Source of the DNA: Candidatus Saccharimonadales bacterium
GTDB taxonomy: Bacteria; Patescibacteriota; Saccharimonadia; Saccharimonadales; JAYRRP01
Assembly (NCBI GenBank): GCA_041910055.1
Contig: JAYRRP010000003.1
Location: 301,973 to 365,972 of the forward strand
Reading direction: 5' to 3'
Length of the DNA stretch: 64,000 bases
Part shown: positions 2,110 to 52,516 of the stretch, in pieces
Position numbering within the stretch: the first letter of the stretch is position 1
Layout of the letters: the number at the start of each line of letters is the position of its first letter
The notes under the pieces: generated by a model
The model's input: only the letters and a program-made list of their open reading frames with translations
Databases searched by the model: none
Told to the model about the DNA's origin: nothing
Position numbers and translations under genes: made by a program

Positions 2110-3855
2110 ATGTCCAAACTTATTACCACCCTGGTGGGTCCCCTCACCGGTAGGGTTACTATTACCAAACTTCAGATATTGACACGGGTGTTCACTCTCG
2201 GTGGTGAACTCGCGAAAGTGCTGATTGTCAGTTTCGGTTTGCTCACGTTTGTACAGTTAATATATCCGCCACAATTGGCACGGCCATTTGCTATTTCCTC
2301 TTATGGTCGAGTAGGGTTCAAGACTCGCCAATCAGTTGTAAACCAAATACACAAGCTTAATTCCACTCCAGTGGTCATAAAGCTAGAAAACCTTACCTAT
2401 ACCGAACAACCTTCTAGAATTGGAATTAGCGTGGAACCGCAAAAGGCAGCGAACCAGGCAGTAAACTATGGCTTAATGGAGCGGCTAAAGCCGTTCAGCC
2501 TGTTTAACCGTCGCGATTTGTATTTCGATAAGGAAATCGATAGCCATAAGCTTGATGAATTTGTGCAAAAAGCAATTGAAGAGAATAAACGGCCAGCGAA
2601 AAATGCAAAGCTAAGCCAAGATGCCAACGGTAATTACCGGGTGCAGAGCGGGGAAGTAGGCACTGAGTATCACTCTCAAGAATTGAAAGAGGCTATTGTG
2701 GCGATGGCTTTCGGTAAAAATGTCCAGGTTGCAATAAAGGGTTCACCAGTCGATCCTCCAATTACTGAACAGGAATTGAAAGCAGTAGTGGTCAAAGCTG
2801 ATGCGGCAGCACGTCTGGGCATGGTAGTTATCTTGGGCGGTGAAAGTCATTCTATTCCTAGTAATTTATTGAAGGATTGGGTACATGTGTCAGCTAATGA
2901 GGCGAATGGCACCGTAAGCCTAAGTTACGATAGAAAATCGATAGCCACTTGGGTGCAAAGCAAGTCCTCTCATTATTATCTATCGGCTACACCGACGGTC
3001 ACAAAACTAGTTGATGGCAAAACGGTGGAAACTCGACCGGGTAAAGCTGGGCAGCAGGTTGATATCGAACAGTCTGTAAAAGCAATTACCGATTCACTTG
3101 ATAAAGGTTCTTTTCTTGCGCAGGGAGTAATAAAACCAGTTTCGCCAAGTGCACAAATCTCACGTGGTTATTCGGCTACTAGCTATGGCCTTCAATTACT
3201 TATTAATGACTGGGCACATGAACAGGGCCGAGTACAGGTCGGTGTGGTGTTGCGCGAAATGGGCGGCCAGGGACGGCAGGCTTCTATCAATGCAGGACAG
3301 AGTTTTTTCACGGCTAGTTTTTATAAGCTCTTTGTAGCCCACTATTTGCTCTCTAAGATTATGAGTGGCCAACTCAATCCTAATACTCAGCTACAAGGGG
3401 GTAGAAGTATCATTACATGCGCAGAAGTAATGATTGTAAACTCCGATAATCCTTGTCCGGAAGCCGCGGCTGCGGTGTTTGGCTGGAGTCAGTTGCATGC
3501 GTTTGCCCGCGCAGCAGGCTTTGGTTCTACGACGCTTGCCGCTGGTAATATTCGTACCACTGCGGCGGACACTGCAGATTACATGACCCGGCTCTACCAA
3601 GGTAGTTTATTGGGTAGTTACACTGGTACTATGCAAGGATGGATGCAGCGCCAAATCTACCGTTCTGCTATCCCAGCTGGCGCGAAGGGGAGTACTGTGG
3701 CAGATAAAGTTGGCTTCTATAACGGTTCGTGGCACGATGCGGCAATTGTATCGGGCCCGAAAACTACTTATGTTTTGGTAGTCATGACAGAGGGTGTTGG
3801 CCCTGGTCCTATCGCTACCTTGACGCAGCGGATTCAGGCTACCTTTGGACAATAA
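2110..3855 (+). CDS. Membrane-anchored serine hydrolase (class A beta-lactamase / PBP-like C-terminal domain)
   Basis: N-terminal TM helix. The C-terminal domain has SxxK (SFYK), SDN (NSDN) and a KTG-like motif (DKVG), followed by YVLVVMT. Confidence 0.55.
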   Translation: MSKLITTLVGPLTGRVTITKLQILTRVFTLGGELAKVLIVSFGLLTFVQLIYPPQLARPFAISSYGRVGFKTRQSVVNQIHKLNSTPVVIKLENLTYTEQPSRIGISVEPQKAANQAVNYGLMERLKPFSLFNRRDLYFDKEIDSHKLDEFVQKAIEENKRPAKNAKLSQDANGNYRVQSGEVGTEYHSQELKEAIVAMAFGKNVQVAIKGSPVDPPITEQELKAVVVKADAAARLGMVVILGGESHSIPSNLLKDWVHVSANEANGTVSLSYDRKSIATWVQSKSSHYYLSATPTVTKLVDGKTVETRPGKAGQQVDIEQSVKAITDSLDKGSFLAQGVIKPVSPSAQISRGYSATSYGLQLLINDWAHEQGRVQVGVVLREMGGQGRQASINAGQSFFTASFYKLFVAHYLLSKIMSGQLNPNTQLQGGRSIITCAEVMIVNSDNPCPEAAAAVFGWSQLHAFARAAGFGSTTLAAGNIRTTAADTADYMTRLYQGSLLGSYTGTMQGWMQRQIYRSAIPAGAKGSTVADKVGFYNGSWHDAAIVSGPKTTYVLVVMTEGVGPGPIATLTQRIQATFGQ

Positions 3856-3857
3856 AC

Positions 3858-4928
3858 TTACACGTTAAATCGAAATTCCACAACGTCGTCTGGTTTGAGC
3901 ACGTAATTTTTACCTTCAGTGCGGACCTTGCCGGCGGCTTTAGCGGCAGCAACTGAACCGGTAGCAATCATATCAGCATAGCTAACGACTTCGGCGGCGA
4001 TGAAACCTCGCTCAAAATCAGTATGGATAACGCCGGCAGCTTGTGGGGCAGTGGATCCTTTGGGAATTGTCCAAGCCCGTACTTCTTTTGGTCCGGCCGT
4101 CAAAAAGCTTTGCAAACCGAGCATGTCATAAGCAGCATGAATTAGTTGGTTCAGTCCTGATTCCTGCTGACCGTAGCTCGCAAGTAGTTCCATAGTTTCC
4201 GCTTCGTCCAACCCACGTAGCTCACTTTCAAGTTTGGCGCATAAAAAAAGGGCTTGGGCTGGTGCGACCATACTACTGAGTTCAACCCGTTTTGCTTCAT
4301 TCCCAAGTGCTTCTTCATCGACATTAAAGATATAAATGACCGGTTTCGCGGTGATTAGATGCAAATCAGCTATATATGTCGGGTCGACACCTGCTTCACT
4401 GGCGAGTTTTCCTTCATCTAAATAACGCTCAACAGCCTGATAGGCCTCTAGGATGGGTTGGAGCTTAGGGTTGGCGCGCACTTCCTTCTCGAATCGTACG
4501 AGACGTTTTTGGACAGTATGTAGATCTGCTAACACTAATTCGGTTTGAATAGTTTGGATATCTTTTTTGGGGTTAGGCGCAGCATCAACGTGAACAACAT
4601 TTGTGTCCGAAAAGGTGCGGACGACGTGAGCTAAGACCTGGCATGAGCGAATATGACTCAAGAACTGATTGCCCAGGCCTTCTCCCTGGCTTGCGCCTGC
4701 TACAAGGCCGGCAATATCCACGAATGTAATAGTGGCTGGAATAATCCGATCCGTCTTATAAAGTGCCGCCAATTTTTCCAATCGGGGGTCGGGGATTGGC
4801 ACGGTTCCGGTGTTAGGTTCAATCGTTGCGAAAGGGTAATTCGCCGCCAGTATATTATTGTCGGTGAGTGCGTTGAATAAGGTCGACTTTCCTACGTTCG
4901 GCAGCCCAACAATCCCTATGCTCAGCAT
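3858..4928 (-). CDS. ychF: Redox-regulated ribosome-binding ATPase YchF
   Basis: MLSIGIVGLPNVGKSTLFNALT P-loop, an internal coiled-coil insert, and a C-terminal TGS-like ...EGKNYVLKPDDVVEFRFNV. Confidence 0.95.
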   Translation of the reverse strand: MLSIGIVGLPNVGKSTLFNALTDNNILAANYPFATIEPNTGTVPIPDPRLEKLAALYKTDRIIPATITFVDIAGLVAGASQGEGLGNQFLSHIRSCQVLAHVVRTFSDTNVVHVDAAPNPKKDIQTIQTELVLADLHTVQKRLVRFEKEVRANPKLQPILEAYQAVERYLDEGKLASEAGVDPTYIADLHLITAKPVIYIFNVDEEALGNEAKRVELSSMVAPAQALFLCAKLESELRGLDEAETMELLASYGQQESGLNQLIHAAYDMLGLQSFLTAGPKEVRAWTIPKGSTAPQAAGVIHTDFERGFIAAEVVSYADMIATGSVAAAKAAGKVRTEGKNYVLKPDDVVEFRFNV

Positions 4929-5098
4929 GTAGCCCAGCTTATTTTATTCATCTGTTAATTCTAACAACTAACTATTTTTTCGCATATAGCTGAGTACATG
5001 ATATTACTCGTTGTAGCTCAATTTCACTTGTGCTTGACAACAATAGATAAATGGATAGATACTAAGGTATACATCAAGGGTGGGAAAAAGGAGGTTCT

Positions 5099-5503
5099 AT
5101 GGCTGTACAAAATAACACTCCCACCGGTTGGGTCGGTTGGGCATATTTCGCGAGTTTTATGATGATTTTCCTTGGCTCGTTCAAGGCTATCGCGGGTCTT
5201 GCAGGTATCTTCAGGGATAATTTTTACGTGGTTACAGAAAACCATTTGTTAGCGTTCAATTACAAAACATGGGGATGGATCTATCTAATTCTGGGTATTG
5301 TAATCTTCATGGCTGGACTTGAGCTCTTGCGTGGGGCAGTTTGGGCGAGAATAGTTGCCATTACACTTGCCATAATAAGTTTGGTGGCAAATGCGGCATT
5401 TCTAAAGGCATATCCGTTCTGGACCATAACAATGATGGTTGTCGATGTACTTGTTATCTATGCCCTGACAGTACATGGCGCAGAACTCAAACAACGCGAC
5501 TAA
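5099..5503 (+). CDS. Small integral membrane protein (4 TM, function unknown)
   Basis: 134-aa ORF with hydrophobic helices, preceded by the SD ggaaaaaggagg. No motif recognised. Confidence 0.6.
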   Translation: MAVQNNTPTGWVGWAYFASFMMIFLGSFKAIAGLAGIFRDNFYVVTENHLLAFNYKTWGWIYLILGIVIFMAGLELLRGAVWARIVAITLAIISLVANAAFLKAYPFWTITMMVVDVLVIYALTVHGAELKQRD

Positions 5504-5548
5504 GTATTTCTACAAGCTTGGATATTTCTTGATATAAGCCTTCTGGCC

Positions 5549-5720
5549 TCATTGCTGCGAGAGGGCATCTCGGAGAGCGTAGAAGGCTGGCTTTGGTCGG
5601 TAGGATTTGTCAAATGGCAAGGGGCGTGGATCTTTTAAGCCGAGGTGGTTATACCATGTTTCCTTGTCCGTGATGCCGAGTAGGGCAAAGCAAAATACTT
5701 GCAAATGAGATAATTCACAG
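5549..5720 (-). pseudogene. Relic C-terminus of a GH10-type glycoside hydrolase (xylanase-like)
   Basis: Minus-frame translation ...VFCFALLGITDKETWYNHLGLKDPRPLPFDKSYRPKPAFYALRDALSQQ* (stop at 5551-5549). It matches the GH10 C-terminal signature (WG[IV]xDxxSW...PLLFDxNYxPKPA[FY]xAxxxAL). No start codon and no upstream remainder. It overlaps the promoter of the next gene. Confidence 0.5.
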
Positions 5721-7899: not shown

Positions 7900-10498
7900 T
7901 AGCATACCAGCCCGGCTGCTTATCCGTATTCCACGCAAGTGGTTGCTAGTAGGTCTTACAATCACCGCTTTGCTATTTATTATTCCGGGCAAAGCTCATG
8001 CGGCCGTGTCTGCGCCCGGTGGACCCGGTGGGCCGCCTTCTCCGGTCAATACTGCTTATTTTGATGGGAGTGTTGCTTTAGGGAATGCTATTGCCTGTGG
8101 CGATGGAACGTATACACGTTATCTCAAACATTTTTCCGCGCCGGAGCTTGACGATGCCGGGTCATATTATGTTTCCCATCAAAAGATAGTTAATTTGACA
8201 GGATGGTCGGGCTACTATGTATGTCCAGGGACAAATTATCGCTATAATTCGAGCCAGCACATTGTTTTTGCTATAGCTCCCGGCATGAAAACAAAAGCGG
8301 ACATGGCGGCTGCCGGAGGATGGGATCGAGGCACACAGGTGCTTGGAGGAACAGTCAACAGCGGCAGTGGTTCTTGGTGGCTTCAGTGGGGTATTGGCCC
8401 CACAAACTTGGCGCCAGGTTGGAATACTATATCGCTTAATTTTCAACCCGACAGCTGTACAACTCTCTCATCAGGTATTTGTAGTCCAATAGCTTCAATT
8501 TCACCGATTATAAGTTATATCTATTACAATCCAGGCGTACAAGATGCTGCTAACTGTAATGCTATTTCGGGCTGGGCCTTTGACTCGGACAACTGGTGGA
8601 CATCTATAAATGTAGATATGTATGATGGGCAGGCTGGAGCCGGAGGCACGCCTATAGGTAGATATCCTACTAATGTGCTTAGAAATGACGTAAACGCATT
8701 ATTCGGCATATCCGGTAATCACGGCTATTCTATCGCCACGCCTGCTGTGCTTAAGGACGGCAATGTGCATCAAATATATATGTATGCCATAGGTGTCGAT
8801 GGAGCAGGCAACATAGACGGCGGTAACTGGATGTTAGCAAACTCCCCAATTACAATAGGTCCGTGTGCCAAAAAACCTGTAGGCACAATAGATACTGCTG
8901 ATTGTGCGTCTATTACTGGTTGGGTGTATGATCCGGATAATACGAGTAAGTCGTTGGATATTAATATCTGGAATGGTCCTCCTGGATCTCCTTCGACTCT
9001 TCTCCAGACGCTCAGCGCAAACGTTCCCAGACCGGATGTTAATACCGCATTTGGTATATCGGGTAACCATGGCTTTAATATTGATCCTAGAACAATACCA
9101 GGCGTAGATCTTAGCCGGACAAATACTATATATATTGCGGCATATGGCGTGGATTCAGCTGGGAATAGGGATGGCTCAGATGCAATATTGGGTAAAGGAG
9201 CCCAACTGGCCCAATCAATCGGTCCGTGCGGTACCACCTCTGCCAATTTCACTCTCTCGCCAACCGCCCAGCTCCCAGTCCTGGATAATGACGAAGCTCC
9301 TAGTGTTATACAGTTTAATACCAGCTATGTAACCGGTACCGGCATACCGGCCGCTGGCGTCCAAGCAACCGCAACTCGCACCTACTTCTGGAAAAGGGGC
9401 GGGGTACGCCAAGTACCAGACATGCGTCCAGCAGCTGCCACTACTCAAAAGTTCACGAACGCGCAATTTACCTTTGCTGATCCGCCACTTAACGTACCGC
9501 CTCCGAACTTACAGGCAGGAGATGAAGTCTGCATAGGCCTTACGATTAACCCAGGCGGCGGTAGCGTTGATGGCGCTGGCAACGTAACCAGTCCCACACC
9601 GGCAAAATACTCTGAAGCTTGTGTTCGGCTTGCCAATAAACCCTACGTCTCTTTCTTTGGCAATGATGTCTTTACCGGCGCCCGCTTTGCCGGCCCTAGC
9701 GGCTGTAGTGGTGCGGTGCCTTCCAGTAACATTAAAGCCTTCAACCGTGGAGGGGCAGGCAGCCCTGGCTCTGGTAACCAACTGGGTGTCTTTGCCGTCG
9801 GCTCAATTGACCAGTTTGCCTCCGCCGCTCTACGAACGACTGCACCTACTCCCGCCACTGGTCTAACCTTCGCCAACTCGCCCCCTAGTTCCTGGGGTGG
9901 CAACTTCGGTGCCTCCACTTGTTTGCCAGATTACTTTGCCAGTGCCACCAGTCCCCAACCAAACAACTACCGAGTCTCTCCGGCAGCTAAAACAGTCATG
10001 GCCAACCCGGCTGGCAACCCAGAAATTATCTACGTCAACGGTGATGCTATCATTGACAACAATATTGTCTATGCAAACGCTGGTACCTGGAGCGCCCAAA
10101 ACCAGATCCCTAGTTTCTACCTCATCGTCAAAGGCAATATCTATATTAGCCAAAACGTGAGCCAACTAGACGGCGTCTACATTGCCCAACCTACTGGTAG
10201 TTCGAATACCGGCCAGATATATACCTGCGCCAACACACTTGCCAAGTCACTCTATCCAATGAGCCAGCTCTATACCCTCTGCAACAGACAACTGACCGTC
10301 AACGGCTCCTTCATCGCTTCCCAGGTCAAGCTGCTCCGGACTTTTGGCAGCTTGCGTGACTCTGTCACCCCTCCCGGCCGACCCGCTGAAGTTTTCCGCT
10401 TTAGCCCCGAAACCTACCTGACCTCAGGCCCCGTTCCTACTGGCACTACCTCGATTAAGAAGTACGACTACGTCACTTCATTGCCACCGGTGTTGTAG
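7892..10498 (+). CDS. Large secreted protein, cassette 1 (paralog of 11113..13707); putative surface/pilus-associated adhesin
   Basis: GTG start 8 nt after the SD agaggag, overlapping the upstream stop (GTGAGTAA). Signal peptide ...LLFIIPGKAHA|A. Two copies of a GWxxDxD...RPDVN..FGISGNHGF...GVDxxGNxDG domain. The C-terminus is conserved with the paralog (GNIYISxxVxQLDGVYIAQP ... LPPVL*). Confidence 0.75.
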   Translation: MSNSIPARLLIRIPRKWLLVGLTITALLFIIPGKAHAAVSAPGGPGGPPSPVNTAYFDGSVALGNAIACGDGTYTRYLKHFSAPELDDAGSYYVSHQKIVNLTGWSGYYVCPGTNYRYNSSQHIVFAIAPGMKTKADMAAAGGWDRGTQVLGGTVNSGSGSWWLQWGIGPTNLAPGWNTISLNFQPDSCTTLSSGICSPIASISPIISYIYYNPGVQDAANCNAISGWAFDSDNWWTSINVDMYDGQAGAGGTPIGRYPTNVLRNDVNALFGISGNHGYSIATPAVLKDGNVHQIYMYAIGVDGAGNIDGGNWMLANSPITIGPCAKKPVGTIDTADCASITGWVYDPDNTSKSLDINIWNGPPGSPSTLLQTLSANVPRPDVNTAFGISGNHGFNIDPRTIPGVDLSRTNTIYIAAYGVDSAGNRDGSDAILGKGAQLAQSIGPCGTTSANFTLSPTAQLPVLDNDEAPSVIQFNTSYVTGTGIPAAGVQATATRTYFWKRGGVRQVPDMRPAAATTQKFTNAQFTFADPPLNVPPPNLQAGDEVCIGLTINPGGGSVDGAGNVTSPTPAKYSEACVRLANKPYVSFFGNDVFTGARFAGPSGCSGAVPSSNIKAFNRGGAGSPGSGNQLGVFAVGSIDQFASAALRTTAPTPATGLTFANSPPSSWGGNFGASTCLPDYFASATSPQPNNYRVSPAAKTVMANPAGNPEIIYVNGDAIIDNNIVYANAGTWSAQNQIPSFYLIVKGNIYISQNVSQLDGVYIAQPTGSSNTGQIYTCANTLAKSLYPMSQLYTLCNRQLTVNGSFIASQVKLLRTFGSLRDSVTPPGRPAEVFRFSPETYLTSGPVPTGTTSIKKYDYVTSLPPVL

Positions 10499-25074: not shown

Positions 25075-25989
25075 TTATTGGTGGGTGCCGTGGAACTTTT
25101 CGTGCACTGCTTTGAGGTGCGGATCGGTAATATGGGTGTAGATTTGGGTGGTAGAAATATTGCTGTGGCCCAGTAATGCCTGCACACTGCGAAGGTCGGC
25201 TCCATTCATTAGCAAATCCGTGGCAAATGAATGCCTGAGTGAGTGTGGCGACACATGCTTGGTGATGCCGGCCAATCGGGCATAACGACTTACCATGCGC
25301 TGGATACTGCGCGCGGTCAGGCGGTGGAAATTACCGCTTAGGTCTACCTTTTTGGTGCCGCTGTAGCGTATAAACAGGGGCCTGACATTGTCGGTTCGTT
25401 TGTCCAAATAACGTTCTAGCCACTCAGCCGCCGCTGGACTAATAAAGATCGGGCGATCCTTCTGGCCTTTGCCGCGAACCATAAATTCACGTCGCTTGAG
25501 ATTTATGTGGTCACGGTCCAGGCCAACAAGTTCGGATACCCTTAGCCCGCTCGAAAAGAGCAGCTCAAGGATGGCCCGGTCACGCAGCCCGGGCAATGTA
25601 TCGGTTTTTGGCTGGGAAAAGAGTCGCTGCAGCTCCTCGGTGGCCAAAAATGTCACTTGTTTGCGTTTAGTAGTCGCGAGTTCGACTTTATCGGCTGGCA
25701 TGGTGTTGATATCACGCTTCGCACAGTACTTTAGGAAGCTTCTGAGGGCGATAAGGTGGTAATTCTGCGTTGTCTTCTGCAGTTCATCCGAAACGTTTGT
25801 CCCAAGCCTGTTTAACCAGAGGCGCCACTTACGGATGAGTTCGGGGTTTATTTCGCTGACGTTTATGTCACCAGCATAATCGATTAAGCGAGTAAGGTAG
25901 TGGTCATAATTGGCAATAGTCTTTTGGGAACGGTTTTGCTCAATCTCAAGATGTTCCAAAAAGTCCGTTTTCGCCTTGCTAAACCGCAT
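25075..25989 (-). CDS. Tyrosine recombinase, XerC/XerD family
   Basis: N-terminal SAM-like core-binding domain (...YLTRLIDY...). The catalytic domain has R...HxLRHSFAT...LGHSNISTTQIYTH. Confidence 0.88.
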   Translation of the reverse strand: MRFSKAKTDFLEHLEIEQNRSQKTIANYDHYLTRLIDYAGDINVSEINPELIRKWRLWLNRLGTNVSDELQKTTQNYHLIALRSFLKYCAKRDINTMPADKVELATTKRKQVTFLATEELQRLFSQPKTDTLPGLRDRAILELLFSSGLRVSELVGLDRDHINLKRREFMVRGKGQKDRPIFISPAAAEWLERYLDKRTDNVRPLFIRYSGTKKVDLSGNFHRLTARSIQRMVSRYARLAGITKHVSPHSLRHSFATDLLMNGADLRSVQALLGHSNISTTQIYTHITDPHLKAVHEKFHGTHQ

Positions 25990-31716: not shown

Positions 31717-31850
31717 TGGTGCGGGTAGAGAATAAACCTTCGGCTTGCGCTCTGCAGTCGTGCTCGAAGCAAGCTTCTGTGCGCGACTTTGATCTTCGAA
31801 CTCCTTTTGCTTTCGCAAAAGACGTTCGCTTCTCGACCACCATGCAGAAT
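31717..31850 (-). repeat. Degenerate partial copy of the tRNA-Gly 3' portion plus structured spacer
   Basis: 31717-31731 (tggtgcgggtagaga) is identical to 31885-31899, the 3' end of tRNA-Gly. On the minus strand the region reads hairpin cttttgcGAAAgcaaaag, then ggagttcga, ~60 nt, then attctctacccgcacca. Confidence 0.7.
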
Positions 31851-31852
31851 TA

Positions 31853-31873
31853 TAAAAACCACCTCGTGGTGGC
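31853..31873 (-). terminator. Rho-independent terminator after tRNA-Gly
   Basis: Minus strand: ccacc-acga-ggtgg followed by ttttt. Confidence 0.65.
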
Positions 31874-31884
31874 TTCCATAATTC

Positions 31885-31959: not shown

Positions 31960-32108
31960 ATTTTGTTAATGAAAAGAAGCGAGGCAACCCAAGGAGTAGA
32001 TTCATTCTACTCAACTGATTGTCGAGCTGAAGGAGGAGACGCGAAGATTGCGAGTGTCACGCTAACAAAACTTAGTGTGACAGAGAGCGATCGTAGCACT
32101 CTCCGACG

Positions 32109-32185: not shown

Positions 32186-32420
32186 AGGCAATTGAAGCAG
32201 TGCGTATTATAACAGATAGGCGATTGCTTTTTGAGGGGTAAATTGCTATCATCACACCTGTTCTTAGAGGTTTGTTTCTAGAGATTTATAAAAATCTTCA
32301 AACCAAGCCGATAAGGATGTTTGAAGATTTAAGAGGAGGCGCCGCGAGAGAGTAGTGCCAGCCATAAGCATAAATTTATTTTCGCTCATGGCTGGCACAT
32401 ATTACAGCGAGCGCCGACGA

Positions 32421-32498
32421 GGGCTCGTAGTGAAGCTGGCCTATCACGCCTCCCTGTCACGGAGGAGATCGCCGGTTCGAATCCGGTCGGGCCCGCCA
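32421..32498 (+). tRNA. tRNA-Asp (anticodon GTC), CCA encoded
   Basis: GGGCTCG acceptor, anticodon arm CCTCC-CTGTCAC-GGAGG, T arm GCCGG-TTCGAAT-CCGGT. 78 nt. Confidence 0.92.
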
Positions 32499-32507
32499 AT
32501 GAAATCG

Positions 32508-32530
32508 CCCCACCTTGTGTGGGGTGTTTT
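32508..32530 (+). terminator. Rho-independent terminator after tRNA-Asp
   Basis: ccccac-cttgt-gtgggg followed by tgtttt. Confidence 0.7.
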
Positions 32531-32574
32531 CATTAGTTAGTTCCAGTGATTTGAACCGGATACTGCGAAGCAGT

Positions 32575-32681
32575 CGGTTCGGCGATGCGAAAACGCTCGC
32601 AGGAGCTTGCTCCGAGAACGTTTGAGTGAAGAAGCGACGAGCCGAAAGGCGAGGGAAGCGCTACCCGGTCGGCCCCGCCAA
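32575..32681 (+). repeat. tRNA-Asp 3'-portion-like element B with ~79-nt insert at T-loop position
   Basis: gtCGGTTCG + GC/purine-rich insert (gcgatgcgaa...ggaagcgc) + tacCCGGTCGGcCCCGCCAA. Compare the tRNA-Asp sequence GCCGGTTCGAATCCGGTCGGGCCCGCCAA. Confidence 0.65.
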
Positions 32682-32708
32682 ACATAAACGATTTGATATA
32701 CTGAGCGA

Positions 32709-32963
32709 ATGAGAAAAATGCGGTATTTCTACGTAACAGCTCTCACCGCAAGCTTGGCCTTTATTATATTTGCACAAACTGAAGATAATCCAGATGCTTG
32801 GGCACCACCAGGGCTTGACATCATTAGTTTGATTAAAGCGTTACTCGCAATATCGATCCCAACTCTTTTAGTGTTGTGGTACCTTGATGAGCGGAGATAC
32901 AAAAAAGCTCAGCTTTTGAGGGGGAGTCAACCTAAAGTGATTCCCAAATCTAAGCCGAAATAA
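32709..32963 (+). CDS. Small membrane protein (84 aa), hypothetical
   Basis: Two hydrophobic helices, followed by a T-rich hairpin. Flanked by elements B and C. Confidence 0.45.
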   Translation: MRKMRYFYVTALTASLAFIIFAQTEDNPDAWAPPGLDIISLIKALLAISIPTLLVLWYLDERRYKKAQLLRGSQPKVIPKSKPK

Positions 32964-33083
32964 ACCACGGCTTCTACAGTTATGGCTCCCACAAAAGAAA
33001 GTCACTTGGTGGCTCTTTTTTCATGCTGTGGATGGTTGTATTTGAACAAGGCGATGCAGATTTGCCAATAGGCAAAGATGCGA

Positions 33084-33176
33084 ATCGCCGGTTCGGCGTA
33101 GCGAAGCCACGCGCAGATGCTCGCATCGAGCATGGCTGAACGGAGGAGCGCAGTGCTAGCCGGTGGGCCCATCAAT
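33084..33176 (+). repeat. tRNA-Asp 3'-portion-like element C with 61-nt insert at T-loop position
   Basis: ATCGCCGGTTCG is a 12/12 match to the tRNA-Asp T arm. It is followed by a 61-nt insert (gcgtagcgaagcc...ggaggagcgcagtgc) and then tAGCCGGTGGGCCCaTCAAT (16/20 match to the tRNA-Asp 3' end). Confidence 0.7.
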
Positions 33177-33211
33177 AGACAAAAATTACGAAACGTGGTA
33201 TAAACAATTTT

Positions 33212-33652
33212 GTGATATCAAAACAAAATCCAATTTTACTTTACAGGGGCGTACCTGAACACAGTGATGAAAAAGAAAGAGTAGGTCGCTGGTGGTCGAC
33301 TGACCCCTATTATGCTTATCATTATTCGAGTGGCGGCAATGGTAGATTATTTGTTGCACAAGTACAGCCAGAGGTTTTGAGTGAACTTGCAAAAGATGTC
33401 TCTATAGACGAAGGGTATGAAAATTACCTGTTTCCCGATGAAGATCCGGCTGGTGCTCGTACGGCCAGTGAGGAAGAAATTGTAGCGCTGCGATCAGCAA
33501 CAATGATAGTTGAACATGACGACATACCAGGTGGTTCTATGATTCAACGTCCACATAATGCAGTTGAGATCGGTTACGAAATATTCGGGCAAAAAGATAT
33601 TGGAGCAGCGGCACTATCTGAAACTGCTAGAGTACGAGAACTCGAGAGATAG
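33212..33652 (+). CDS. Hypothetical protein, 146 aa
   Basis: ORF only. Motifs LLYRG ... WWSTDP ... EGYENYLF give a weak resemblance to the R-S-E ADP-ribosyltransferase triad. Confidence 0.5.
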   Translation: MISKQNPILLYRGVPEHSDEKERVGRWWSTDPYYAYHYSSGGNGRLFVAQVQPEVLSELAKDVSIDEGYENYLFPDEDPAGARTASEEEIVALRSATMIVEHDDIPGGSMIQRPHNAVEIGYEIFGQKDIGAAALSETARVRELER

Positions 33653-33732
33653 TTCCACATTTTCACCGCTAGAGCCTGCATTTCACAGAGGAGCACGCTT
33701 GCAAAAACACAAAAAAATGCTAATGTATATCT

Positions 33733-34230
33733 ATGGAATCCCCTCAATCTAAACAAAAATTAGAACTAGATCTATCAACGGATGAATGGACAGAACGCCT
33801 TGCAGTCGCTCCTGTTTACGTCAAGAAAGCTAAGGTACAGGCTCGCCAAGTGGCAGAACGCCAAGAAGTGCGTACAACCCTAGCAGATGGTACAGAAGAG
33901 ACGGTAAACATTGCAGAAGCTGGCGACGTGATTGTCACTAACCCTGGCGGTGAAAAGTACGTCTTAAAGCCTGACAATTTTGCCAAACGTTATGAAGCCA
34001 CCGAAGAAGTTGGTGTATTTCGTGCCAAAGGTATGGCCCGCGCTGTAGATAATCCAACTGGCAGCGAGATTGAAATCATGGCTCCCTGGGGCGAAAAGCA
34101 ATTTGGGGGTATGGACTGTTTAATTGCCACTGTCTTTGATCCTGAACAGCCTGATGTGATTGGCGCTGATCGTTATATTATTGGCCGCCAAGAGTTTGAA
34201 TTTACTTACACTCCTTACACAAGAGAGTAG
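33733..34230 (+). CDS. Hypothetical protein, 165 aa (possibly PGDYG-like domain)
   Basis: AGDVIVTNPGGEKYVLKPDNFAKRYE resembles the PGDYG-family motif. Recognition is weak. Confidence 0.5.
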   Translation: MESPQSKQKLELDLSTDEWTERLAVAPVYVKKAKVQARQVAERQEVRTTLADGTEETVNIAEAGDVIVTNPGGEKYVLKPDNFAKRYEATEEVGVFRAKGMARAVDNPTGSEIEIMAPWGEKQFGGMDCLIATVFDPEQPDVIGADRYIIGRQEFEFTYTPYTRE

Positions 34231-34316
34231 GACGGCCCCCAATCAGAGAACAGTGCGGGTACTAGAGACAATATTTTGCTTCTCTAAAGTGAGGGATACA
34301 GTGTAAAATTAAACCA

Positions 34317-49757: not shown

Positions 49758-49981
49758 CGGGGTGTGGCGCAGTTGGCTAGCGCGCATTACCCCATAAGAA
49801 CTTTAAAAACGACAGGGTGTAGCTTAGTTGGTAAAGCGCTGGGCTGGGGGTCCAGAGAGCGGAGGTTCAAGTCCTCTCACCCTGACCAAAGTTCTTATGG
49901 GGACCCCGTTTACGGCTGGGGGCCGTGAGGTCGCAGGTTAGCTCCGCGCGAAGCCGGAGCGCTGTCCTGTCACCCCGACCA
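49758..49981 (+). ncRNA. Interrupted tRNA-Pro(GGG)-like gene hosting a complete tRNA-Pro
   Basis: 5' CGGGGTG-TG-GCGC-AGTTGGCTA-GCGC-G (acceptor + D arm), then a 126-nt insert. After it come the anticodon arm TACGG-CTGGGGG-CCGTG, variable AGGTC, and T stem GCAGG/CCTGT enclosing TTAG + a 21-nt insert + TGT. The 3' end is CACCCCG-A-CCA, complementary to the 5' acceptor. A TGgTATAGT promoter sits at 49738-49746. Confidence 0.6.
49813..49888 (+). tRNA. tRNA-Pro (anticodon GGG), CCA encoded, nested in 49758..49981
   Basis: CAGGGTG acceptor, D arm GCTT-AGTTGGTA-AAGC, anticodon arm CTGGG-CTGGGGG-TCCAG, T arm GGAGG-TTCAAGT-CCTCT. 76 nt. Bracketed by the 15-bp inverted repeat ccccataagaacttt (49790-49804) / aaagttcttatgggg (49888-49902). 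Confidence 0.88.
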
Positions 49982-52106: not shown

Positions 52107-52483
52107 GCCAGATTGTTGGCTGGCCGCCCTATGTTTCGGCGTAGGGAGGAAAGTCCGGGCAGCATAGGGAGAGGCAGTTGCTAACGGCAACCGGAGGAAA
52201 CTCCAGGGAAAGTGCCACAGAAACTAAACCGCCCTTCATTTGAGGGGCAAGGGTGAAAAGAGCGGGGTAAGAGCCCGCAGTTATGTGCGGTGACGTACGT
52301 AAGAGGTAAACCCTGTCTGCTGCAAGGAGATCGGCCCGTTAGTGACCTTAAGGTTGCGGTTTCCCGCCAGGGCTGGTCATATATCCGCTCGATCCAGATG
52401 GTGACATTTGGACAAGATAGATGGTCAGCGCGTTTTCGTACTTGTACGAGAGCAAACAGAACCCGGCTTATAGATTTTCTGGC
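52107..52483 (+). ncRNA. rnpB: RNase P RNA (bacterial type A)
   Basis: GGAGGAAAGTCCGGGC (P4 5' strand), GGTAAGAGCCC, ACAGAACCCGGCTTA (P4 3' strand), and P1 pairing gccaga/tctggc. TATAAT at 52095-52100. Confidence 0.92.
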
Positions 52484-52484
52484 A

Positions 52485-52516
52485 TAAAAAACCACCGAAG
52501 TCTTCGGTGGTTTTTG
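52485..52516. terminator. Bidirectional rho-independent terminator (rnpB / rplT)
   Basis: aaaaa-accaccgaag-t-cttcggtggt-ttttt. Confidence 0.85.

Follow-up and report, generated by a model that had tools for sequence, protein, structure and literature searches.

Covarying hairpin units behind tRNA genes of Saccharibacteria as possible attachment sites of small gene cassettes

We analysed a 64,000-nt stretch of DNA from a Candidatus Saccharimonadales bacterium (contig JAYRRP010000003.1, positions 301,973 to 365,972; hereafter the window), which has a GC content of 46.6% and carries a class A RNase P RNA at 52108-52486 and six tRNAs, as determined with ARAGORN and Rfam. tRNA-Gly(CCC) and tRNA-Thr(CGT) are encoded on the minus strand; tRNA-Asp(GTC) (32421-32498) is encoded on the plus strand and is followed by small orphan open reading frames (ORFs). 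Behind two of these genes we find three copies of a structured unit, B and C in the array that starts at tRNA-Asp and A on the 3′ side of tRNA-Gly. Each unit contains a copy of the 3′ part of its tRNA into which a hairpin module is inserted at the T-loop. Units of this kind are roughly 100-190 nt long and non-coding. Judged from sequence comparison, they form a family that is widespread in Saccharibacteria and apparently undescribed, and we found no description of them in the searched literature on Saccharibacteria or the candidate phyla radiation.

The array is anchored by tRNA-Asp itself, which ARAGORN and Rfam recognise as intact and whose nucleotides 58-76 (AATCCGGTCGGGCCCGCCA, 32480-32498, direct repeat DR0) are the segment that recurs downstream. 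Unit B opens with a bidirectional intrinsic terminator (32499-32534; stem 32506-32526 plus T-tract, scored on the minus strand as well), followed by a predicted helix, P1 (32551-32581), with a layout common to other units. P1 comprises, in this order, TTGAACCGG, which is antisense to the T-loop and T-stem, an apical C(GAA)G hairpin, and CGGTTCG, which represents the sense 5′ strand of the T-stem and T-loop nucleotides 54-57. The tRNA-like part of B consists of GTCGGTTCG (32573-32581), an insert of 80 nt (32582-32661) that is made up of a type-1 hairpin module (core 32596-32625) and further small hairpins, and TAC plus CCGGTCGGCCCCGCCA (32662-32680). This closing segment, DR1 (TACCCGGTCGGCCCCGCCA), is a displaced or duplicated tRNA-Asp 3′ end. 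The last 16 nt of B match the tRNA-Asp 3′ end with one mismatch, and in the related locus L002, whose PPIase is 99% identical, B closes with a perfect 19-nt copy of tRNA-Asp 58-76.

Upstream of unit C lies a degenerate partial repeat, DR1′ (TATGGCTCCCACA, 32981-32993), and the opening terminator of C follows directly (DR1′ and terminator together 32981-33021). The same arrangement of TAYGG, acceptor, CCA and terminator is found in L054, L055, L330 and L262, and we consider C to be a complete unit because the terminator of the preceding gene, ORF84, follows this partial repeat. P1 of unit C (33040-33095; fold z = -2.8) is composed of ATTTGAACAAGGCGAT, an apical hairpin and ATCGCCGGTTCG (33084-33095), a layout that equals that of the unit in L013; ATCGCCGGTTCG is identical to tRNA-Asp at 12 of 12 positions. 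A 61-nt insert (33096-33156) with a type-1 module and a small hairpin leads to TAG plus CCGGTGGGCCCATCAA (33157-33175); this segment (DR2, TAGCCGGTGGGCCCATCAA) repeats the 3′ end of tRNA-Asp in degenerate form. Unit A (31717-31884, minus strand) comprises a terminator (31848-31884), an antisense/P1 region, a type-1 module (31747-31805) and a repeat (31717-31732) that copies the 3′ end of tRNA-Gly exactly over 15 nt (31717-31731), with one mismatched nucleotide more up to 31732.

The inserts of A, B and C share a module of ~40 nt, in which an outer stem, CNCGCA, an inner stem with a CUYG loop (usually CUUG) and GAGMA follow each other. In the initial alignment of nine sequences, 95.8% of the pair cells were paired, compared with about 25-45% in a control in which the pairing partners were slid, and two-sided changes occurred at 9 of the 11 pairs. 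A second count on 56 metagenome matches (55 distinct sequences) gave 95.7% paired cells, two-sided changes at 10 of the 11 pairs and 123 double-change cells, in an alignment that was fitted to the model; the initial metagenome search pattern fixed part of the inner stem. The first covariance model detected B with 65 bits (32573-32632) and C with 66 bits (33087-33146) in the window. A model built from the metagenome sequences only assigned 68 bits to C, 65 bits to A and 64 bits to B (E about 1e-12), and the next match in the window reached 9.6 bits (E about 2). Since this metagenome-only model picks exactly A, B and C, their similarity is not compositional. Neither Rfam at its gathering threshold nor ARAGORN recognizes any of the three; in a search at E up to 10, Rfam returned a sub-threshold match to sar RNA (22.3 bits; gathering threshold 43) on the opposite strand of unit B.

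We determined the distribution of the units in 80 Saccharibacteria loci that were fetched around PPIase homologues (L numbers denote fetched loci throughout), and scanned 82 sources (the window and 81 loci) with the first model, which yielded 28 modules. A specific pattern, used in one metagenome scan, matched at least 120 loci, and the model confirms 56 of the first 100. Among these 56 matches, 41 are located within 130 nt on the 3′ side of a same-strand tRNA and 7 further along arrays. The units lie 64-130 nt downstream of tRNA genes, always on the strand of the tRNA. For tRNA-Asp, Arg(CCT), Gly, Thr and Val, a copy of the tRNA's own 3′ end was found repeatedly on the same strand, 100-190 nt downstream; counted over 72 loci, 22 of 188 tRNAs (~12%) have their own 3′ end repeated downstream, and the upstream control gave 0. 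At least 15 tRNA identities are associated with units (Glu, Asn, Ser, Met, Gln, Asp, Pro, Leu, Arg, Ala, Lys, Gly, His, Thr and Val).

These results bear out much of the initial annotation of this region, which had described B and C as two look-alikes of the tRNA-Asp 3′ portion with homologous inserts on either side of ORF 32709..32963. The 12/12 start, 61-nt insert and degenerate 3′ end of C are as it had stated, B has the same layout with its 80-nt insert at the place assigned to it, the homology of the two inserts is substantiated by the shared covarying module, and the bracketed gene, ORF84, does lie between DR1 and unit C. It had also named two outcomes that would speak against an element family, a similarity no higher than the composition-matched background and a lack of further copies and of tRNA association; the gap between A, B, C and the next window match and the counts in the sampled loci and metagenomes show the opposite. 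The proposed family of GC-rich structured elements at tRNA T-loop positions is supported. The picture of two elements needed to be extended by the third copy behind tRNA-Gly, and the description as tRNA fragments with a small insert was too narrow, as B and C are full units that include the terminator and an antisense copy of the tRNA half.

Beyond the window, the units follow one order: tRNA-CCA, bidirectional terminator, degenerate antisense copy of the tRNA 3′ half, apical hairpin, sense T-stem 5′ strand with GGTTCG, module and direct repeat. A small GGAC-GAA-GUCC hairpin and GCTA are often found between the module and the repeat. The terminator is present at its position in nearly all units, and the sequences on both sides of it pair with the CCA end. 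In 90% of 60 units, the antisense part fits its own tRNA better than the non-cognate mean. The length of the exact repeat peaks at 18-19 nt (17-19 nt in 24 of 35 units); the repeat starts at nucleotide 58/59 and in 21 of 35 units does not extend past CCA. The junction of the module is fixed at T-loop position 57/58 whatever the identity of the tRNA, and the slot of the type-1 module can be occupied by other modules (type 2 in L012, L032 and L080, type 3 in L060 and type 4 in L070). The genome of L060 holds two type-3 copies, 2061-2322 and 4215-4490, behind tRNA-Arg and tRNA-Asp, the ends of which are highly similar and the middle more divergent; in the Arg copy, the repeat reaches about 60 nt and includes the terminator.

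The hairpin loops of the units have a distinct composition. Of 40 perfect-stem GNA triloops (expected number of GNA triloops, 2.3), 36 are C(GNA)G, a loop type that characterises DNA minihairpins of high stability, such as d(GCGAAGC). GNRA loops occur twice and UNCG loops not at all; the inner stem is usually closed by a CUUG-type tetraloop. G.U (20) and A.C (16) mismatches are about equally frequent, without strand asymmetry. A promoter scan of the units found no promoter-like (sigma-70-like) site, and the units begin right after strong bidirectional terminators. Empty type-1 units, in which P1 would be followed by an uninterrupted T-loop, were absent from about 190 tRNA neighbourhoods and from the arrays.

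The array in the window reads tRNA-Asp, terminator, B, DR1, ORF84, DR1′, terminator, C, DR2, ORF146, PGDYG and a possible remnant. ORF84 (32709-32963, plus strand, 84 aa) is an orphan without family match that is also found in L002. In the region 32690-32711, an extended -10-like sequence, TGATATACT, is located 9-11 nt 5′ of the ORF84 start, and this sequence suggests that the cassette gene may have its own promoter and a near-leaderless mRNA. Behind unit C, the cargo (33212-34230, plus strand) consists of the orphan ORF146 (146 aa) and a PGDYG-domain ORF (165 aa). The tentative oldest remnant of the tRNA-Asp 3′ end, GGACGGCCCCCAA (34230-34242, plus strand), is a weak assignment from sequence comparison and coincides with the point where homology to L006 restarts (ATCAGRGAAC...).

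The comparison of synteny at tRNA-Asp, which the initial annotation had suggested as a check, identifies 32499-34242 as a variable array with another content in L002 and in L006. In L006 (PPIase 85% identical), A, B and C are absent, and the space from tRNA-Asp to a conserved 118-aa ORF is filled by different genes; L002 carries A, B and ORF84 and is missing 33027-33718, which holds the core of unit C and ORF146. The window and L002 are the single informative close pair for presence and absence at the strain level. Single genes in the same orientation that are separated by units occur in the window array and in L032, L317, L328, L330, L262 and L054, with a cargo of DHH phosphoesterase, 2′-5′ RNA ligase, GNAT, methyltransferase, M23 peptidase, HATPase/DUF4325, Panacea antitoxin and orphans. 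Tandem units are present as exact copies in L326, with more tandems in L244 and L234. In L032, an ORF has a copy of a discrete ~135-nt core, running from P1 to the end of the repeat, on either side, and the flanks are unrelated. In L273, the last 25 nt of tRNA-Met (2242-2317) recur as an exact copy after 22 nt with no unit between, which may be a minimal scar.

Repeats, an intact tRNA, a terminator after CCA, gain and loss between strains and serial arrays together constitute the signature of site-specific insertion at tRNA 3′ ends. The inverted copy of the tRNA 3′ half, the covarying module at 57/58 and the dominance of C(GNA)G loops point to the unit as a folded-DNA recombination site, and action in trans is suggested by the lack of a recombinase near the units. 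The reading that we favour, and to which we give an even chance, is that A, B and C serve as attachment-site modules for small cassettes, which integrate one after another at tRNA 3′ ends, with the folded unit as the site that is recombined in trans. We infer the steps that lead from the unit to a folded site and from there to a particular enzyme. An incoming element would recombine with the tRNA 3′ end, bring along a replacement 3′ end and a terminator, and shove the old 3′ end downstream; repeated integrations and recombination between repeats would then build and prune arrays. The folded unit, as single-stranded or cruciform DNA, would be the recombination site itself, and the recombinase would come from a gene at another place in the genome or be provided in trans. 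Among the three readings that the initial annotation had offered, its att-site scars of serial integration at tRNA-Asp fit best, and the other two, taken up below, are weaker.

The known part of this reading is tRNA-anchored integration; the structured site and the integron-like organisation of the arrays are new. P4-type islands typically have repeats of 16-20 bp at the 3′ ends of tRNAs. In the tycheposons of Prochlorococcus, successive tRNA integrations leave partial tRNAs (bioRxiv 10.1101/2020.12.28.424599). The units resemble such tRNA islands in (i) insertion into the 3′ part of a tRNA gene, whereby one end carries the intact tRNA and the other a partial copy, (ii) serial integrations that push older elements outward and leave partial tRNAs, together with accessory cargo, and (iii) 18-19-nt direct repeats around an insert that is present or absent at the same tRNA between relatives. 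Unlike islands, they are short and non-coding, have no tyrosine or serine integrase in the array ORFs or within 3.5 kb, carry an antisense tRNA-half copy and a covarying module inside a T-loop mimic, use one module type for all of the tRNA identities listed above, and mostly enclose single-gene cargo.

Several observations weigh against serial cassette integration through such attachment sites. One module type serves at least 15 tRNA identities and its flanks are tRNA-specific each time, so that a classical attP would have to re-acquire its flanks for each tRNA; moreover, the module splits the would-be crossover region of a T-loop-type core site. The antisense arm pairs with the cognate repeat only slightly better than with non-cognate repeats (-13.3 vs -11.7 kcal/mol). 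The 692-bp segment missing from L002 is edged by (A)TGCT microhomology and not by tRNA repeats. Clustering of 1470 neighbouring ORFs within 3.5 kb of units revealed no recurrent recombinase, transposase, reverse transcriptase or other enzyme family, and the only recombinase of the window is a conserved Xer-type gene (25075-25989), 6.5 kb off and present in relatives too. In viral contigs (IMG/VR), a loose type-1 pattern gave chance matches and a specific type-1 pattern 5 matches, none of which the model confirmed; INPHARED phages and PLSDB plasmids contained no match. No phage- or plasmid-borne or free copy was seen in these collections.

Related searches gave the following results. Pfam assigned miscellaneous cargo and no integrase to the array ORFs, and the type-2 pattern had 36 matches in IMG/VR, all of them within coding sequence. 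In the relative L338, a large serine recombinase and a 577-aa reverse transcriptase (RVT_1) lie on either side of the AIR-synthase gene (regions 1-1364 and 3832-5565); such genes therefore exist in the lineage, not beside units. The (A)TGCT repeat of 4-5 nt at the L002 indel is located at 33022-33031 and 33713-33722 in the window and at 12280-12295 in L002, and the right end of the segment is A-rich (CAAAAACACAAAAAAA). The segment could be a microhomology deletion or could reflect a target-site duplication.

A second explanation, possible but clearly less probable in our view, is integron-like gene capture without a dedicated adjacent integrase, in which any tRNA 3′ end would serve as anchor, the ~135-nt core would be the folded-DNA site, and a host enzyme, e.g. 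of the Xer type, would catalyse recombination. The core would consist of the inverted tRNA-half repeat, the 57/58 module and the 18-19-nt end repeat and would yield insulated arrays of single-gene cassettes, possibly with incoming single-stranded DNA as substrate in these naturally competent bacteria. Integron attC arrays likewise consist of same-orientation single-gene cassettes between imperfect palindromes whose structure is kept over sequence, contain ORF-less cassettes, probably recombine through folded DNA, and grow from one anchor. They differ in that the unit arrays have no IntI, attI or Pc beside them and use a tRNA 3′ end as anchor. The attC R′′/R′ boxes RYYYAAC/GTTRRRY are not matched in unit B either, where TTTGAAC has two mismatches and GTTCGGC has one. 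Furthermore, every unit carries a terminator, and the cassettes would thus be transcriptionally insulated. The folded attP of CTX-phi offers a parallel for host-mediated recombination: two inverted target copies could fold in single-stranded DNA into a duplex mimic, and the recombinase is not element-borne, an Xer-type gene being present in this genome. All units lie at tRNA 3′ ends and not at dif, however, no genes of a single-stranded-DNA phage accompany them, the complementarity of the unit arms is partial, and the link to Xer is pure conjecture.

Less probable still is that the module is an independent miniature mobile element of the IS200/IS605-PATE or REP type, which would move via single-stranded DNA, insert after TTCG in T-loop-like DNA, and survive solely in dispensable tRNA copies such as att remnants and pseudo-tRNAs. 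The fixed junction in all tRNA identities would be expected of such an element, as would T-loop modules in full-length pseudo-tRNAs beside an intact copy (tRNA-Asp in L261 and an outer tRNA-Pro in the window, described below), DNA-type hairpin loops, and different module types at one site. PATE and REP elements also are short, GC-rich, imperfect hairpins of the DNA type in AT-rich intergenic DNA, often by terminators, with a fixed insertion point after a short motif, here TTCG. The absence of empty type-1 units, which weakens the initial annotation's suggestion of a T-loop-targeting miniature insertion element, argues against this explanation, as does the absence of Y1/HUH transposases, TnpA and RAYT among the ORFs of the fetched neighbourhoods. 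The strict coupling to the cognate tRNA, with tRNA-specific flanks and a direct repeat, is not shared by PATE and REP elements, and the structure of the host sequence, with its terminator, antisense half and sense half, would be left unexplained.

Nearly as unlikely is a structured non-coding RNA gene, a mimic of the tRNA 3′ half with an expanded T-loop that would act as decoy or regulator of factors binding tRNA 3′ ends. Strong covariation with several invariant unpaired nucleotides, the mostly CUUG-type tetraloop of the inner stem, and a tRNA-adjacent repeat that is usually perfect even where a nearby partial repeat has decayed (L330) are in line with an RNA. A DNA hairpin is favoured over an RNA, because units start right behind a terminator and have no promoter, G.U is not in excess over A.C, and C(GNA)G triloops dominate while GNRA and UNCG loops are nearly absent. 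In addition, the units are sporadic, occurring at about 12% of tRNAs, are lost between close relatives, and have no Rfam match. The tRNA-derived non-coding RNA considered in the initial annotation gains no positive support.

Retro-derived units appear very improbable. According to this explanation, reverse transcription would be primed by a tRNA, as in long terminal repeat (LTR) retroelements, the repeat would represent the 18 nt of primer tRNA copied up to modified A58, and strand transfer between terminal repeats would generate tandem units. The repeat comprises exactly nucleotides 58/59-76 and ends at the mature CCA, thereby coinciding with the 18-nt tRNA segment (59-76) used by LTR primer-binding sites; TGGnn after the terminator is complementary to nnCCA; exact tandem multimers occur; and the indel between the window and L002 is A-rich at its right end and flanked by a repeat of 4-5 nt. 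However, units have no linked reverse transcriptase and no LTRs, and the unit copy is in sense and adjoins the tRNA gene. Units always lie beside the cognate tRNA gene in the same orientation, as DNA-level site-specific insertion predicts, and the CCA boundary is equally accounted for by selection for an intact tRNA. To our knowledge, no tRNA-primed retroelement has been described in bacteria.

Chance similarity or ordinary decayed tRNA pseudogene fragments without a shared element, to which the degenerate 3′ end of C and several distal repeats could be attributed, are refuted by the scores of the independent model for all three window copies, the compensatory changes in dozens of further copies and the stereotyped architecture. 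Three further candidates were rejected: homing RNAs of CRISPR-associated transposons and bridge or omega RNAs (cognate proteins are absent, and the two tRNA-like parts are both in sense), a T-box (no specifier or antiterminator logic), and a tmRNA or split tRNA (no 5′ acceptor partner).

Related cases are found in full-length pseudo-tRNAs. The window contains a degenerate outer tRNA-Pro(GGG) (49758-49981, plus strand), between the D and anticodon arms of which a functional tRNA-Pro(GGG) (49813-49888) is nested. The T-loop of the outer tRNA-Pro contains a module at 49940-49963, followed by the 3′ end GTCCTGTCACCCCGACCA (49964-49981). An insert in this T-loop had been reported in the initial annotation and is present; it is of another module type than the inserts of B and C and sits ~2 nt earlier in the loop, rather than at the same position. 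It belongs to type 4 and is homologous to the L070 unit, which is found behind tRNA-Asp there. In L335 (AIR synthase 96% identical), the 3′ repeat of tRNA-Pro is kept and preceded by another module type. The nested tRNA-Pro insert is flanked by a 12-bp inverted repeat (CCCCATAAGAAC / GTTCTTATGGGG); if the inner tRNA-Pro were processed out, the outer halves could stay paired via this 12-bp helix. L261 contains a full-length pseudo-tRNA-Asp (9135-9387) with an X2-type leader (see below), a decayed anticodon arm and a type-1 module in the T-loop, and an intact tRNA-Asp follows directly.

Two further hairpin elements lie near tRNA-Asp. X1 is an insertion of 149 nt (31960-32108) that separates tRNA-Thr from tRNA-Gly; in L002 and L006, these two genes abut. 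The T-arm of tRNA-Thr in the window is wholly unlike that of L002 and L006, despite 99% PPIase identity to L002, and the X1 region contains no tRNA-Thr 3′ repeat. X2 (32330-32420), which is similar to X1, consists of a GC clamp (GGCGCCGCGAGAG...CAGCGAGCGCC) around a long hairpin directly 5′ of tRNA-Asp (fold z = -6.7). L002, L006 and L261 share X2 except for its hairpin loop, which varies, and it looks like a conserved leader or regulatory structure of tRNA-Asp. The motifs at 32020-32050 and 32330-32350, which had been regarded as related to the inserts, have no model match and belong to this other element, X1/X2.

Saccharibacteria and other ultra-small episymbionts have tiny genomes with few recognisable mobile elements, yet small sets of orphan genes vary from strain to strain. 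As a minimum, the units should be known to annotation pipelines as a source of tRNA-like fragments. They mark entry points of accessory genes at the 3′ ends of many tRNA genes and provide a searchable handle on gene flux in the phylum. If the unit is indeed a folded-DNA site that is recombined by a host recombinase, it would constitute a new platform for cassette capture comparable to integrons and might serve as a tool for site-specific integration in organisms that are hard to engineer.

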